A stretch of DNA of 64,000 nucleotides from Okamejei kenojei (taxonomy: Eukaryota), in NCBI GenBank assembly GCA_035221665.1, contig JAVHYY010000078.1:62001-126000 (forward strand), given 5' to 3'. Made by a program: the position numbers and the translations under genes. Shown here in pieces: positions 3,287-21,360 of this stretch (its first letter is position 1; each line of letters begins with the position of its first letter). Under the pieces are notes generated by a model that was not told the origin of the DNA, did no database searches, and worked only from the letters and a program-made list of their open reading frames with translations.

Positions 3287-5164
3287 AGAGACCTCTGCTC
3301 ACTCTGCAGCGAGCCTGACAATATAATCAAACCCACCGACAAGAGAGATTCCGTGGTTGTCTGGTGCGCTTGACATCTACTGTCACCAGCTGAGGCCAGG
3401 TGACAACTCTCAGACATCTCATCCTTGGACCATGACCCCCACAGATGACCACCAGACCTTAATATCACATTACTTCCAGCTCTCTGCCCTCTTCAGCCTT
3501 CAACCTTATCATTCCCCAGCACGACTTTATCTTCTCCCTAAAATTCACAAACAGAATTGTTCTGGCAAACTCATTGTCTCTGCTTGTTCATGTCCCACTG
3601 AATTAATTTCCACATACCCTGACTCCATCCTATCCCCCTAGTCCAGTCACTCCCTACCTATGTTCAAAACACACCACACGCTCTTCATCTCTTCAATGAC
3701 TTCCGTTTTCCTGGCAGCCATTCCCTCATCTTTACCATGGATGTCCAGTCACTCTACACCTCCATCCCCCACCAGGAAGGTCTTAAAGCCCTCTGTTTCT
3801 TCCTCAACCACAGAATCAACCAATTTCCATCCACTAACACTCTTCTCTGCCTAGCAGAGCTGGTCCCTACCCTCAACAACTTCTCCTTTGACTCCGCCCA
3901 CTTCCGCCAAATCCAAGACGATTTGGGCCCTAGCTACGCCTGCCTCTTTGTAGGAAACGTCGAACAATCACTGGTCAAGGCGTACACTGGCCCTATCCCT
4001 GAACTCTACCTCCGCTACATTGACGAATGCATCAGTGCTACCTCCTGTACCCATGCAGAACTCACTGACTTCATCAACTTCACGACTAGTTTCCATCCTG
4101 CACTCAAATTTTCCGACATCTTCCTACTGTTTCTAGATCTCACCATCTCCATCACAGGAGACGGACTATTGACTGACATCTATTACAAATCCACTGACTC
4201 CCATAGCTATCTAGACTACACTTCTTCCATCCTGTGTCTAGTAAAGACTCTATCCCCTACTCCCAATTCCTCCGTCTACGCCGCATCTGTGCCCAGGATG
4301 AGGTTTTCCATATCAGGTCATCAGAGATGTCCTCATTTTTTAGGGAACAGGGTTTCCCCTCTTCCATTATAGATGAGGCTCTCATTAGGGTCTCCTTGAT
4401 ATCCCGCAGCTCCGCTCTTGCTCCACCTCCCCCATTCGTAACAAAGACAGAGTCCCCCTTGTCCTCACCTTCCACCCCATCAGCCGTCGCATATAGCATA
4501 TAATCCTCCAACATTTTTGCCGCCTCCAACGGGATCCCACTACTGGCCACATCTTCCCAGCTCCACGACTTTCTGCTTTCTGCAGACCGTTCCCTCCGGA
4601 ACTCCCTGGTCAACTCGTCACTTCCCACCCAAACCACCCTCTCCTCAGGTTCTTTCCCCTGCAACCACAGGAGATGCAACACCTGTCCCATTATCTCCCC
4701 CTCAACTTCATCCAAGGACCCTGACAGTCTTTTCAGGTGAGGCAGAGGTTCACTTGTACCTCCTCCAACCTCATCTACTGTATCCGCTGTTCCAGATGTC
4801 AACTCCTGTATATCAGCGAGACCAAGCGCAGGCTCGGCGATCGTTTCACTGAACACTTCTGTTCAGTCCGCCTAAACCTACCTGATCTCCAGGTTGCTCA
4901 GCTTAACTCCCCCCTCCCATTCCCAATCTGACCTTTCTGTCCTGGGCCTCCTCCGTTGTCAGAGTGAGGCCCAGCGCAAATTGGAGGAACAGCACCTCAT
5001 ATTTCGCTTGGGTAGCTTACACCCCAGCAGTATGAACATTGACTTCTCTAACTTCAAATAGCCCTTGCTTTCCCTCTCTCTCCATCTCCTCCCCCTTCCC
5101 AGTTCTCCCACCAGTCTTACTGTCTCTGACTACATTCTGTCTCTGTCCCGCCAACTCTTCTAAC

Positions 5165-14425: not shown

Positions 14426-15002
14426 AATATTGTGTTTTACTTTGGAGTCACGTGAGTGACTACGTGAAGAAGCCCCGCCAGAGGGCCTGCGCGTCATTAC
14501 GTCCGCCGCGTTTGGCACACGGACAGGCTGGAGAGCGCAGCTCCACCAGCGGTAAGTAAAACACCCGCAGGTAAGTGTTTTAAACTTGCTGCGGTTTACT
14601 AGGTCCCGTAAGGCTGTTTACAGGAGCCAGCAGGGACACTTTCCTAAAGGGAAAATATTAAAATAATGAAAATAAGGCGAGTATGTTGCTTATAAAGTAA
14701 AACCTACCTGCAGCCAGTCCGCATGGGAAGGTGAATAGGGATCGGAGAGAAGGCATCCCCGGGTCTGTTCTGCTGCTATACCTGCGTGTGATGCTAGTAT
14801 TGGAAGAAATAGCCGGCTTGCCCCGACAGCAAGCTGACGGAGCAAACTGTGTCCCCTCAACAACGGGTCAGAGATATCCTCGCTAGCCATCTGCTCCACC
14901 CTGGATCCGCAACCACTGAGCATTATTCTATGCTCACCAAGGGTTTTATTTCACTTAGACTGCTGTAAAAATGTAAGAAAATGACACACATTCTATGCAG
15001 AA

Positions 15003-15366
15003 TTATTTCCAAACACCCGAGCTATAACTGGGAGCCTGGTTCAAAAAACTGGAGGTGGCGCTGGAGTAATTGAGAGTGTTGTGTGGATGGTGCAAGGAGC
15101 CCAGTCCAGACATCGAAAGGCGAAGTCCCCTCTTGAAAAATGTGCTCGTGGACGTGACCAACGCCGGCGACGTTTGCCCGTCGTCCCGCTGATGAACACG
15201 TCGTCGCTGGACGGGTCCAGCATCCAGTAATTACCCCTGCCAGGGTCATCGTAATGTCGAGGCACTTTGACGAAACAACTTATTAAGGCTGAGGTTGTGG
15301 CGGATGAAGTTCTGCCAGCCTTGCTTGTTCTCAATAGTAGGGGAAATTCCTCATGATGAACTCATA
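15003..15366 (-). pseudogene. FoxG-family (FoxG1-like) forkhead gene fragment, frameshifted and internally deleted, inside the DIRS element
   Basis: Minus strand across about 3 frameshifts: [68 protein letters not shown]...[30 protein letters not shown]. Diagnostic FoxG forkhead C-terminal half plus downstream motifs. Minus-strand AATAAA at 14945-14950. Confidence 0.9.
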
Positions 15367-16329
15367 GCTGCGGTCAGTGGATGATGACGGCTTTTGAGAC
15401 GCCAACTTTATAGCCACCGGCAGTCCAGCCAGCAGCAGCAACTCCGGTGCTTTAAAGCACTGTGGCTACTCCCGTCGGGAGGCAGGCCAAGAGTAAATTG
15501 TCCAGGCCTGTCAACTCTGATGTGGGGCCAGAAAGACTTTTCCCTTCCAAAAAATTAACATTGGGGACGTCTGGACATCGTGGAACACCTCATAGCCAAG
15601 AGATAACAACCAGGAGGTGTTCCAGCCGGGGTTTTTACCCCAGGGTCTCCAGCAGCTTTTAGCAGCAACCTCTAGCAGAGATCCGTTAAGCAAAAGAGCT
15701 GTACACATATGAAGGATAATTTGCCTACGTGTCTGCATGGGGACCCATAACAGCAGCACCTTATTTAGGGCTGCATGTTTCCTCCCGTGAACAGGAGCCG
15801 GGAGAAGCCAGGGCAGTCACATAAGCAGTGACACCCTGAAGTTTGGTGTCACTGCTTATGTGCATACACCAAAGCACTTGAGCTATGCTCCGGATGTGGC
15901 CAGCAATTTGCTATACCGGCGGGAACTGGTGAAGCCATGGATGACAATCTGGCCAGCAATTTAATTATATGGCCTCTCACCAGCTCCAGGGCTCCATAAT
16001 GGAGGAAACTTCGCAAGACATATCAAACACCTGTTAACTGTGCATCGCTCTAAAGGAGCGCATCATGAGGGCGCATGAGTTAAGGCTGCAGAAGTCCTAA
16101 AAACTGGTTGGAGCAGGAATAATGGCATTTGGGAAAATGGTATAAGGGCACCACTATCTAAACACAGCAGGATATGGACCCTGCTGTGTAATACCCATTT
16201 TTAGAATTAATTATTCACGAATAACCATCCAGCCTACGCTCAACCCACGGTTCACAGCCTTGCGCAGATCCTTTAATATCCAGGGAAAGACCACTAACTG
16301 CAGGTGAATGATGAAATTGGTATTTTATT

Positions 16330-17500
16330 CCAAAAAAGAGGTAATTGAAAGGACGGCATATTAGCCTCAACAATTTGTGTCCAATATTCCCCAGCCAAAA
16401 GAACGATGGTGGGTGTTGAGTCATTCTGGGCCTAACCAGACTTAACTCTTAGGTCCAGTATAAATGTTTTAAAATGAAAGTTTTCAGTATTGCAACTGGT
16501 ATCAAAAGGGTGTTATATTGGCAACTATAGATCTGAGAGATGCATAATATTCTGCTACCAAACACCTGTTCAGAGGTTAGGTTCCTCACCCATCTAATTA
16601 AATCCAAATTAGTACCATTTAGAATAATTGGCTATTTGAGGTTCATCATTGATTTAATTAACATGTCAGTACTTTGCCTACGGCCAAAACTGTAACTAAT
16701 GTCTCGCGATGTACTAGAGACATTCTGACTCAATAACCTTTAGTTTACAAACTGATGTGAGCGCTTCGGGATGGGGAGCCACTGATATCGAGGTGGCAAG
16801 TGGAATGTGAAAGAGGAATTAATCCTGCAGAGGCATGGGGTAAACTACGTAGAATTGCTGGGTGCATTCTATGGCCTAAAAACATTCTGCTCAACAATGC
16901 ATGATTTGCATGTGCAGCTTCAGATTGACGATACCACAGCTGTTGCATATCAATCACATGGGTGGAATTAGGTCATTATTCTGTGACAATCTGGCTAACC
17001 TCATCTGGCATAATGCATTACGAGAAACAACTGGGTCTCAGATATCTACATACCAGGTCACGTAAATTCAATGACAACACAGAATGGATGATGAATCCAA
17101 AAGTTTCAAAATGATTGTCAGCCGGTATGGATTGCCAGACATAGATCTGTTGCATCCGGGTTAAATCACCAGTTACCTAAATACGTCTCATGGGAACCAG
17201 TTCCAGGGGCAGTAGCGGAGGATACATTCTTGCTACGTTGGGGTCGTACATTCTTACGCTTTTTCCCCATTCTGCCGCATTAGTCAATGTCTCACCAAAA
17301 TAGAGTACGACTACGCTTAGGTGTTTGGTAGTTCCTAACTGGTCCACACATCCATGGTTCCCATTGGTTCTGAGACTGATGACACAGCCATTCATGACTA
17401 TCCCCAATTACAGCAACTTGTTGGTTCATCCCTGGGACAGGGAGGAGAGTTCCCCTTTACATGAGCGTATTAATCTGTTGATTTGTATCTTCTGACCCGA
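16330..17500 (+). pseudogene. DIRS RT / RNase H / methyltransferase-like remnants
   Basis: Motifs as listed for the DIRS element. The segment expected to hold the RT YLDD motif appears deleted near 16555-16580; many stops. Confidence 0.8.
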
Positions 17501-17509
17501 CTGTTCCAG

Positions 17510-19975
17510 GGACTCGGACTATCGAGTAGGACCATCGAATGTGATTACGGTGGCCTGGAGAAATAGTACTAAAAAACGATATATATCTCATATTAAGAAA
17601 TGGGAAAAGTTCTGTTTACAGTCAAATATATCTTATGTTGCAGGCATACCGGATGTATTGGAGTTCTTTGCTACTTTGCTTTTTTGACGTGCAGTTAACA
17701 TATAGTGCCATTTATAGTGCTCAAAGTGCTTTGTCCTCCTATTTAGGGCAAGAGTCGGGACAACACTCTGTCGGATCTCATCTATTGGTGGCCCGATTCA
17801 TAAGAGGTATTTTAACTAAACCCTCCCAGACCTAGATATTCGTAAGTCTGGGATGTGGGTATACTTCTCACACTGCTTTGGCAATGGGCTCCAATTACAT
17901 TTCTGCCTTTCCAGAAGTTAACGCTCAAAGTGGTCATGTTCATGATGCTAGTGGCAGCGCAATGGGTCCAGATATTGCAAAAAGTTACGACTGGACAGCA
18001 TCCATTCTTCTGTAGATAATATTACGTTTTATGTATATGATCTAATCAAACAGAGCAGGCCAGGGATGGCTGGAACCAAAATAAGCTTAAAGTATACCCA
18101 TTGACCCATAATCTAAATTACATTAGATTTTCCCAAAGATATCTCCTACATGTGATAAATGTCAAATTTCAGAAGCAAATTTGTCACATTCATTTACTAA
18201 CTGTATAAAAATTGTAGAATACTGGAATGAAATATTTAAGATAATTTCGAATGTTGTCAATATAAGTATGACTCCTGACCCAAAGTTAATTATACTTGGA
18301 ATATTTGAAACTGACCAACTAATAACAATGAATCAAAGAACTTTTATTGATTACTGTCTAATAATTGGGAAAAAATTAATATTAAAATTTTGGAAAGGCC
18401 CTGCATTCCCAACAATCAAAATGTGGAATATAGAAATGTCGGAGACACTCCATTTGGAGAGATTGAGGCTTATTCTTATAGATGGGTTAGACCTCTTCAG
18501 AAGGATTTGGTCTCCGTATATTAAATATTTACAGGGTCATAACGGTTCGGCGCGAGGACTTGACTGAGGCCTGGATATTTGAATGGATGAAGAAATATAT
18601 ATAATAAATCATGAATATATCTTTAAGGGCGAATTAATGACGAATGTTCTATTCTCCATCAAACCTTTCTCATTCTTTATTCTATTTTCTATTTTCTTTT
18701 ATCTATATAAAAAACTAGAAAATAGCATAGAAACAAACGATCTTAACCTCTTAATACCGGTGCGAATATAAATATTATTAATTTCATGAGAATATTATTA
18801 GTATCTTATATTTTTAATTATATAAAATTGTGTATTTTCAATTATATAATAAATTTTAAATTTAAAATCAGTGATAACACAAATATTGTTAACTTTACGA
18901 AAATATAATGAATATTATAAAAGTTTTACTAGTATTTCATATTATTAATCACATAATATTTAGCATTATACTTAAAATTAGAGACAAAATAAATAGTATT
19001 AACAGTATGAGTATATTGCTAATATTATAAATGTATTATTAGTATCATGTATTTTTAGTTATATAAAATATATAACCTTGAAATTTATAATTAAGAACAA
19101 TACAAATAATATTAATAGTATGAATTGATCATTAATATTATGTATTTTTACTATAGTAAAATAATGTACTCTGTTATTATTTTGTTTCTATAATAAATAA
19201 ATTAAAAAAAAAAAAAAAAAGTATACCCATTGACCTAAGACTATGTGTAGTTACGCACCTGAGCCAATATATCAAGGTCATCAAGCAATTTATAGTGCTA
19301 GAAGTACTTTGTCCTCCTACTTAGGGCAAGGGTCCGGACAACACTGTTGGATCTCATCTATTGGTGGCCGATCCATAGGAGGTATTTTAACAAACCCCTC
19401 CCAGACATACATATTCAGAAATCTGGGATGTGAGCGTAGTTCTCACACTGCTTTGGCAATGGGCTCCAATTACATCTCTGCCTTTCAGGAAGTTAACGCT
19501 CAAAGTGATCATGTTCATGGTGCAGCATTATGGGTCCAAATATTACAAAAGGTTTGACTGGAATGCATTCTTTTGTAGACGATATTGTGTTTTATGCATA
19601 CGATCTAATCAAACAGAGCAGGCCAGGGATGGCTGGAACCAAAATAAGCTTAAAATCTACCCATTGATCTAAGACTATATGTAATTACTCATCTGAGCTA
19701 ATAATATCAAGGTCATCAAGAGTCTCAGAGGCTCTGAAACAGCGATGCTCGTCAGTCACATAAAACCTCATACAAAGGTGTCAGTACAAACTATTTCTAA
19801 CCAGCCGAGACAGGTTTGCGTTATGCTGGAGTAGATACTGATATGTTTAAATCACTCCACCAGGACGGCGTCAACGTATGCAGCAAAGGCGCAGGACGTG
19901 CCATGAGACCAAATCCTCATCGCAGGAAGGTCCAATGAAGGAACCTTTTCACGATTTATGATAAACCTGTCCTTG
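17510..19975 (+). pseudogene. DIRS tyrosine recombinase remnant, partly duplicated and split by an L1
   Basis: AWRNSTKKRYISHIKKWEKFC; LTYSAIYSAQSALSSYL; KLTLKV; AGVDTDMFK-HSTRTAST; TFSRF-DKPV. Confidence 0.8.
18107..19220 (+). mobile_element. 5'-truncated L1-clade LINE inserted in the DIRS YR
   Basis: ORF2 C-terminal CCHC motif (PTCDKCQISEANLSHSFTNC..IVEYW), very AT-rich 3' UTR, AATAAA and poly(A) at 19204-19220. TSD gtatacccattgacc (18092-18106, 19221-19235) at a CTT|AAAG site. Confidence 0.9.
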
Positions 19976-20405
19976 CAATGCAAAGATTTGGGCATGCTGT
20001 TTTGGGTTCGGTTTGAGTTCTCCTTTGTAATTTCCCCTGCGAAAGAGGGGTTATTACTGTTCTTTTATTGCTTAAGACGTTCAATGTATAATTTAAACAA
20101 TGTTCAATACATTATTTGTTTCTCCTGTGTCAACCAAGGCAGTGTGTCGTATGGAACTGAAATCACAGAGCTTTGAAATCTTCACGTAGTCACTCATGTG
20201 AGTCCGAAGTAAAATAGTAAGATTAAATGAGAACTTACCAGTTTGAAGTTTGATCTTTATTTTATGAGGAGTTACGATGAGGGATTACGTGCCCTCCGCT
20301 TCCGACCCTCATAATCGCAAAGATCATCTGGTAGTTCTAGTCTTCTGAGTCTTACTATATCACTTCGACTGTAGTTGCTGTGATTTCACGCCGCTGCTTT
20401 GAAGT

Positions 20406-20863
20406 CTATCTACTGGATAGACTCGGTTTATACTGGATAGACTCGGTTTATACTCTCTAGAATTTAGGAGATTGAGAGGGGATCTTATAGAAACTTACAA
20501 AATTCTTAAGGGGTTGGACAGGCTAGATGCAGGAAGATTGTTCCTGATGTTGGGGAAATCCAGGACAAGGGGTCACAGCTTAAGTATAAGGGGGAAATCC
20601 TTTAAGACCGAGATGAGAAAGACTTTTTTCACACAGAGAGTGGAACTCTCTGCCACAGAGGGTAGTTGAGGCCAGTTCATTGGCTATGTTTAAGAGGGAG
20701 TTAGATGTGGCCCTTGTGGCTAAGGGGATCAGAGGGTATGGAGAGAAGGCAGGTACGGGATACTGAGTTGGATGATCATCCATGATCGTATTGAATGGCG
20801 GTGCAGGCTCGAAGGGCCGAATGGCCTACTCCTGCACCTAATTTCTATGTTTCTATGTTTCTA
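20406..20863 (+). mobile_element. CR1/HER1-type LINE 3' fragment between the DIRS ICR and right ITR
   Basis: RGDLIETYKILKGLDRLDAG..TRGHSL; (TTTCTATG)n tail; tgaagt TSD (20400-20405, 20864-20869); 20-bp tandem duplication at its 5' end. Confidence 0.9.
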
Positions 20864-21360
20864 TGAAGTATGACGCGCAGGCGCTCTGGCGGGGCTTCTT
20901 CACGTAATCCCTCATCGTAACTCCTCATAAAATAAAGATCAAACTTCAAACTGGTAAGTTCTCATTTAATCTTACTATTAATTTCCCAAGGATGCTTGCT
21001 GAATCTATTTAGTGATTTGAGATTTGTTAAAGATTCGACTTGGGGTGGACATAATGGCTTTTGGGAACAATGTGGTTCTGGCACACATATAATCTGACAG
21101 CTATAATTTTGATATTTGCAGCATTTTAAAAGAGACAAATGTTTAAAGGCATATTACAGATGGTGCTGGATGAAGGGAAAGGTGTATGATGACATCTCTA
21201 CAGATGCACGATCGAAAGCATTCTTTTGGGCTGCATCACAACTTGGTTGGGCGGCCGCTCTGCACAAGGCTACAGGAAGTTGCACACAGTTCGATGCAGT
21301 GCAGTCTATTATGCGTATCAGCCCACTCTCCCTCCCATCTCCATCTACACTTCAAGCTGC

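Follow-up and report, generated by a model that had tools for sequence, protein, structure and literature searches.

Does an antisense piece of a FoxG forkhead gene inside a DIRS retrotransposon record the capture of host mRNA by a tyrosine recombinase (YR) retrotransposon that subsequently multiplied, or only a one-off insertion into a single copy? The question was raised by a first-pass annotation of the window, a stretch of 64,000 nucleotides from Okamejei kenojei (contig JAVHYY010000078.1, positions 62,001 to 126,000). The element and its parts, in window coordinates, are as follows.

14435..20979, plus strand: DIRS-like element of the subfamily with FoxG and caspase-3 (subfamily B), delimited by its ends and internal complementary region (ICR), with the same ends in other copies
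14435..14497, plus strand: left inverted terminal repeat (ITR; 14453-14497 pairs with 20870-20914, and 14435-14470 with the ICR at 20179-20214)
14547..14626, plus strand: leader containing a pair of GTAAGT donor-like sites and one CAG acceptor-like site (putative splicing)
14627..14713, plus strand: start of the gag region, parent-derived by comparison with other copies and the empty-site parent
14710-14713: GCGG microhomology with foxg1b, reading GCAG in the window copy
14710..14922, minus strand: captured 3' part of the foxg1b coding sequence (donor L035, ~2279-1985), with deletions of 13, 44 and 19 nt
14920..15013, plus strand: captured piece of the caspase-3 last exon (88/96 identity to that exon)
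15017..15367, minus strand: captured 5' part of the foxg1b coding sequence (donor 1984-1581), from YEFIM through the C-terminal half of the forkhead
15097/15098, minus strand: 48-nt deletion in this 5' part, from alignment to the donor
15368..16100, plus strand: gag remnant, with stops and frameshifts common to copies
16100..17500, plus strand: reverse transcriptase (RT)/RNase H remnant without three parent segments (~217, 206 and 228 nt), one of which contains the YLDD motif
17500..19950, plus strand: YR remnant; in the window copy, a LINE piece and a ~450-nt duplication break it up
18090..19235, plus strand: LINE 3' fragment peculiar to the window copy, with poly(A), flanked by a perfect 17-nt target site duplication (TSD; 18090-18106 = 19219-19235)
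20179..20291, plus strand: ICR, from inverted-pair matches
20861..20979, plus strand: right ITR, from inverted pairs and the same end in copies

The carrier is DIRS-like by its inverted repeats and ICR, its gene order and the lack of a long TSD. Its ITR/ICR pairs are 100% identical over 79 nt (I1), 93% (I2) and 92% (I3), and the order gag, RT/RNase H, YR is present as remnants, the YR and RT being recognised by aligning them with L067, an intact relative that has matches to PF00078 and PF00589. In the 31 copies that have both ends, the insertion junctions mostly read ...A/TTTT on the left and TA/TT on the right, with no long TSD. The element had been described as a complete DIRS, which holds for its ends but not for its coding part, where breaks disrupt both gag and RT and the RT core has been lost. 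Pairs of GTAAG donor-like sites, followed by a CAG acceptor-like site ahead of the gag start, also occur in the first 200 nt of L066, L067, L070, L071, L078, L081 and L082; this shared leader is possibly a 5' intron that would serve subgenomic RNAs and be retained in genomic RNA.

The FoxG piece extends over window positions 14710-15367 on the minus strand, is 91% identical to its donor (525/575 aligned bases) and covers donor positions 1581 to ~2279, an internal stretch of ~700 nt. Its frameshift-broken minus-strand translation gives the C-terminal half of the forkhead, the downstream motifs and YSS, bearing out the initial reading of an antisense forkhead piece inside a DIRS. A 42-residue translated piece scored weakly against Pfam Forkhead (23.6 bits, under the cut-off of 27) and matched proteins labelled FoxG1 at 92%. 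The insert had been thought to end near 14915 and to lack most of the C-terminal coding region. Neither proved correct: FoxG coding sequence resumes at 14922 and continues to ~14710 (LSGCGSGVEQMAS...GPG...LAAG), and most of the C-terminal region survives, less 44, 19 and 13 nt lost in three deletions. The absence of about 17 codons between SGLG and SLHHP was correctly noted, its exact size being 48 nt (16 codons); this deletion is present in 47/75 aligned copies.

Three intact FoxG genes (L033, L035 and L041) were found among the best 30 loci of a genome search for Forkhead with 150 scored matches. In the forkhead part, 53 copies have 92.4% identity to L035 (contig C8, 50.56 Mb) versus 81.2% and 79.7% to the other two paralogues. 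A protein tree of 26 of the 120 proteins listed, with no cartilaginous-fish reference and with names as labelled by their sources, placed L035 as sister to bony-fish Foxg1b (support 100/99) and grouped L033 with tetrapod FoxG1. As judged from this tree and the copy identities, the donor is the Foxg1b/FoxG3 paralogue, in agreement with the earlier suggestion of a paralogue other than FoxG1. The gene is intronless. Foxg1b is the FoxG3 of Hara et al., expressed in the catshark in retina and cranial ganglia according to part of that report (PMC10789856). The third paralogue, L041 (C41, 1.31 Mb), sits on a very long branch of the tree and is likely Foxg1c, by elimination.

The AT-rich segment with AATAAA, originally taken for the 3' end of the insert, is a second host piece in the opposite orientation. 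It came to light through a long contig in run X19 (the comparison with contigs of this run covered only the first 756 bases of the element), which matched the segment with foreign flanks, one of them unique in the genome at C3:29725486. The segment (14920-15013) is identical at 88/96 positions to the end of the caspase-3 last exon at 29.7255 Mb of contig C3 (genome G000), and comprises the last 13 codons, the stop and ~55 nt of 3' UTR, in sense to the element. The frame of this exon matches caspase-3 structures (E 3e-33), with three more caspase exons upstream. Read on the opposite strand, the Phe-Tyr-Phe codons immediately ahead of the caspase-3 stop give the minus-strand AATAAA. Two other readings of the segment had been tried: as a FoxG 3' UTR with poly(A) signal it was without a match in 40 kb round the donor, and the reading as a micro-exon with splice sites was abandoned once the caspase-3 source had been identified. 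The piece sits inside the FoxG piece, splitting 14710-14922 from 15017-15367, and its junctions show a 3-nt GCA microhomology (14920-14922), the loss of 1 nt and a few filler bases on the right.

The genome-wide counts decide for capture and amplification and against a one-off insertion, in line with the junctions, flanks and empty-site parent described below. The right FoxG junction gave 164 genome matches (up to 2 mismatches), the caspase junction 145 (up to 1 mismatch) and the empty site 152 (up to 2 mismatches), with 0 for the control in each case. Since the junction patterns miss part of the known copies (recovering 13/19, 17/19, 37/44 and 25/38 of them), the FoxG-bearing copies number at least 164 and are estimated at ~200-250 in all. 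A 701-base query returned 654 candidates, 40 of which were scored and gave 43 matches at 84-93%, the window itself excluded. The copies share single junctions: among 64 distinct copies, the right FoxG junction was identical in 61/61 and the left in 56/57 of those in which the anchor was found. The flanks differ among the 31 copies with both ends, except in a few duplicated pairs (for example L124/L125 and L116/L133). Sequencing runs under six organism labels contain 21-31% of the query words, and contigs from organisms B and C bridge the chimeric junctions. Some copies (L116, L133, L124, L125, L216, L251 and L256) are joined head to tail to other DIRS copies at the exact terminus, as expected if DIRS elements insert into the circle-junction-like end of earlier copies.

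The parent of this family was found with a gapped pattern, which gave 45 empty-site matches (control 2); it reads ...GCGG-GG-CYGCGG at the capture site, and neither FoxG nor caspase sequence occurs in any of the 20 empty-site elements examined. Two other searches for it had failed: all 30 loci picked by gag similarity carried FoxG (16 already in the set), and none of 20 elements with intact YR, at 64-73% identity, was the parent. Relative to the empty-site parent, FoxG entered with 4-nt left and 1-nt right microhomology and the loss of 1-2 nt. Neither a poly(A) nor a TSD is present, as had already seemed from the window alone; the CTGCGG repeat at both FoxG junctions, tried as a TSD, pre-exists in the empty site. 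This comparison largely refutes an ordinary LINE-made retrocopy that landed in a DIRS copy and then rode along, which had been put forward, as an L1-mediated event, for the case of a single copy with TSD and poly(A). LINE insertions are indeed common inside DIRS elements, the window copy included, but the true LINE insertion of the window element, an internal control for ordinary target-primed insertion, shows a 17-nt TSD as well as poly(A), while the captured pieces are internal and end before the mRNA 3' end. We regard this explanation as very improbable.

The copies nest, from the parent through elements with FoxG only to those with FoxG and caspase-3. Subfamily A carries FoxG with one 44-nt deletion and without the caspase piece (19/20 loci), and subfamily B, to which most FoxG-bearing copies belong, has in addition the 48-nt deletion, caspase-3 and several more deletions. 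In a tree of the RNase H-YR region, built from the 39/61 copies with enough cover and 3 outgroups, the parent is paraphyletic, A and B fall inside it (support 87, or 100 together with the parent copy L185) and B falls inside A (98); the support of 87 for the FoxG clade alone is moderate. Tips of the tree are mostly 2.5-4.5% long, and within-group distances are 6.7-7.4%. Re-amplification from one capture event is thus seen in the junction counts, the identical junctions and the nested tree. No third host capture shared by copies was evident among 106 unexplained internal stretches, which were compared with each other only. Three empty-site copies, L239-L241 (C545, C787 and C914), share an internal deletion, lie on several small contigs and probably belong to a larger amplified block.

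The amplified copies have lost the RT core. On the L184 reference, the deletions correspond to 1313-1530, 1987-2193 and 2339-2567; across 101 loci, some of which do not span the sites, the RT segments are kept in 0/61 FoxG loci, and the exact deletions occur in 0/40 empty-site loci. An open gag-pol with YxDD, the mark of an autonomous DIRS, is therefore absent, with 0/61 copies keeping the YLDD segment and with stops common to copies. Since none of the 61 FoxG-bearing loci keeps the catalytic region, these elements likely moved in trans with enzymes supplied by intact DIRS families; the RT of DIRS-1 acts in trans (PMC7192593). Elements with an intact YR and similar termini abound (of 3605 candidates, 96 were scored), and the 40 empty-site loci yielded no intact helper belonging to the same lineage. 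The sequence makes it probable that the parent was already defective before capture, because its ATG is absent in 32/34 scorable parent copies (it is present in 2/4 copies of the sister lineage) and several stops recur, partly a frameshift run-on effect. The loss of 651 nt of RT and the gain of 657 nt of FoxG in subfamily A, a near-equality that may be chance, leave its length equal to that of the parent (4787 for L120 versus ~4800-4900). In another DIRS copy, L067:1575-4844, gag and RT/RNase H form a single stop-free frame of 1090 codons, which is split at different places in the close copies L071 and L078.

How the two pieces entered is a matter of weighing. We lean, without great assurance, towards serial capture of host mRNA by a non-autonomous DIRS through RT template jumps. 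A DIRS lineage, its coding capacity likely already lost, would have acquired the ~700-nt internal foxg1b piece in antisense and later taken up the 96-nt caspase-3 last-exon piece in sense, both likely from mRNA by RT jumping between templates at short homology. The chimeric element would then have spread to 164 sites or more (200-250 by estimate), likely with enzymes in trans. We infer that RNA was the template and DIRS RT the enzyme, that mobilisation was in trans and that the cargo has no host function. Messenger RNA templates are indicated because both pieces are exonic (the caspase-3 piece was not chosen for being so), come from two contigs (C8 and C3), have no DIRS ends by their donors and show short homology at the junctions. 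The absence of DIRS ends in 40 kb around foxg1b and in 60 kb around caspase-3 also argues against read-through. Neither piece spans an intron/exon junction, so an RNA origin is not proven, and filling of gaps from the genomic donor loci without any RNA step would account for the lack of a skipped intron, foxg1b being intronless. We consider such DNA-templated filling improbable, given that both pieces are exonic in a 2.76-Gb genome, that neither donor has DIRS ends nearby and that a founder near the donor did not emerge: L242, the copy nearest to foxg1b (385 kb), is of the late B type.

Jumping during minus-strand synthesis would fit the caspase-3 piece, while the antisense foxg1b piece misfits a simple minus-strand jump onto mRNA, which counts against this mechanism; it would require a jump while the second strand was being made, or else a transcript in antisense. 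At each capture site only 1-2 nt of the element were lost and no part was replaced, which resembles break repair and likewise counts against jumps. The microhomologies (4, 1 and 3 nt, with filler at one further junction) are short and would fall within the range of chance for 1-4 nt. Patching of a double-strand break in a genomic DIRS copy, by end joining or by synthesis-dependent repair from mRNA or from cDNA made by any RT, followed by passenger amplification, deserves consideration. Near-clean insertions, microhomologies of 1-4 nt, filler and opposite orientations are typical of repair, and gap-filled Pack-TIRs show a median microhomology of 2 bp in the part of PMC8277862 that deals with them. 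On this account, two independent repairs must have struck successive master copies within 0.5 kb, whereas a repeatedly reverse-transcribed master has many more chances of a jump, and many other microdeletions and a duplication in the master lineage are consistent with RT slippage. We thus hold break patching to be possible but rather unlikely, and retain template jumps as the preferred reading. Microsimilarity, multi-gene chimeras and re-amplification are the hallmarks of LTR-mediated retroposition as set out in part of Tan et al. 2016 (PMC5131818), where the Drosophila retrocopies described took the place of some of the element and in no case broke into an otherwise continuous copy.

Capture of host genes has been well documented in LTR elements, Helitrons and Pack elements. 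New here are the YR carrier, a far higher copy number, the nested second capture and the preservation of all stages, with empty parent, single capture and double capture in one genome. We found no published case of host-gene capture by a DIRS/YR retrotransposon in a search outside of which lay Repbase, Dfam, most subscription journals and supplements; the supplements to PMC5131818 might include cases in antisense or flanked by DIRS. As far as the sections seen describe it, LTR-mediated retroposition (PMC5131818) shares with our family the partial host mRNA pieces in a retroelement, short junction similarity with filler, two genes per chimera and non-autonomous amplification from one capture. 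It differs in its carrier (here a YR/DIRS element without integrase), in replacing part of the element where 1-2 nt were lost here, in the antisense orientation of one of our pieces and in having few sites against hundreds of copies. Maize Bs1, in the same source, likewise combines exonic pieces of several unlinked genes in one retroelement with switch points common to copies, but it is an LTR element of 1-5 copies; here, the second gene lies inside the first, no frame is kept and a single-capture intermediate subfamily survives. Pack-MULEs and animal Pack-TIRs (PMC8277862, in part) are similar as non-autonomous elements that carry microhomology-joined host fragments, increase their number and may engage in antisense or small-RNA cross-talk. 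They belong to the DNA transposons, with DNA as template and a bias in cis, in contrast to a retroelement carrier with both pieces exonic and no founder near a donor. The passages on DIRS1-group YR retrotransposons (PMC7192593, PMC9210276) describe the same ITRs and ICR, gag-RT/RH-YR order, length of ~4.8 kb and trans-acting RT; they mention no host-gene cargo, and the present lineage is coding-dead yet near full length. This staged series can be used to test DIRS cDNA synthesis on foreign templates, including an antisense orientation unpredicted by the simple model.

The cargo itself decays neutrally. Across 75 aligned copies, 175 of the 704 rare substitutions in the FoxG piece are synonymous versus 180.5 ± 11.1 expected, and 23 are nonsense; the match with expectation points to neutral cargo, with no sign of a protein role. 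An apparent selection on the FoxG frame (raw pN/pS 0.67 and 0.77) vanished after matching for base and CpG context, and an in-frame fusion of antisense FoxG into gag was rejected, all three sense frames having stops common to copies. Only 4/56 copies have a forkhead part without any deleted base. Differences from the donor common to most copies number 14 (12 synonymous, 2 non-synonymous), a pattern that fits, as expected, a donor that would have evolved onward under constraint.

Retention of the cargo might still be due to some use at the RNA level, where antisense foxg1b RNA or small RNAs would adjust the activity of the donor gene or protect the element from being silenced; this reading deals with why the pieces were kept and can go with any route of capture. 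The FoxG piece lies directly behind the leader, 82/83 copies retain one or more 21-nt stretches that match foxg1b perfectly in antisense (9/58 for caspase-3), the subfamily with both captures makes up most of the FoxG-bearing copies, and cross-silencing of donors has been described in maize (part of PMC13317346). The perfect 21-nt windows per copy have a median of 51 for foxg1b and of 2 for the other paralogues. Against this stand the steady deletion of cargo along the master lineage, substitutions neutral for protein and an empty-site lineage that is about as numerous (152 vs 164 matches), so that we find a useful cargo quite doubtful. In a broader and similarly doubtful extension, DIRS particles would collect host mRNA time after time within a limit on packaging length, and the 200-plus copies would put antisense foxg1b directly behind the promoter of the element, feeding germline or embryonic small RNAs that act on foxg1b. 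The 657-nt FoxG gain and the 651-nt RT loss fall on the same short branch. If true, a dead transposon family would have become a dispersed trans-regulator of a transcription factor of placode and eye.

A practical consequence concerns the study of Fox genes in this lineage. All 20 partial Pfam forkhead matches picked for a FoxG-like range were FoxG-bearing DIRS copies; some 200 decayed foxg1b pieces thus inflate forkhead searches, and they can mislead foxg1b probes, the mapping of RNA-seq reads and counts of Fox genes.

The window copy has further features. Its LINE fragment (18090-19235), presumably L1-like, carries an AT-rich ~110-nt tandem array, with related pieces beside L022, L023 and L130. 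The ~450-nt YR segment is present twice (17707-18104 and 19285-19667); since the duplicates are only 88-90% identical, the duplication suggests a recombination between two different copies. A further 3' fragment, which we take to be CR1-like and which is very common in the genome, is inserted between the ICR and the right repeat at 20432-20865.
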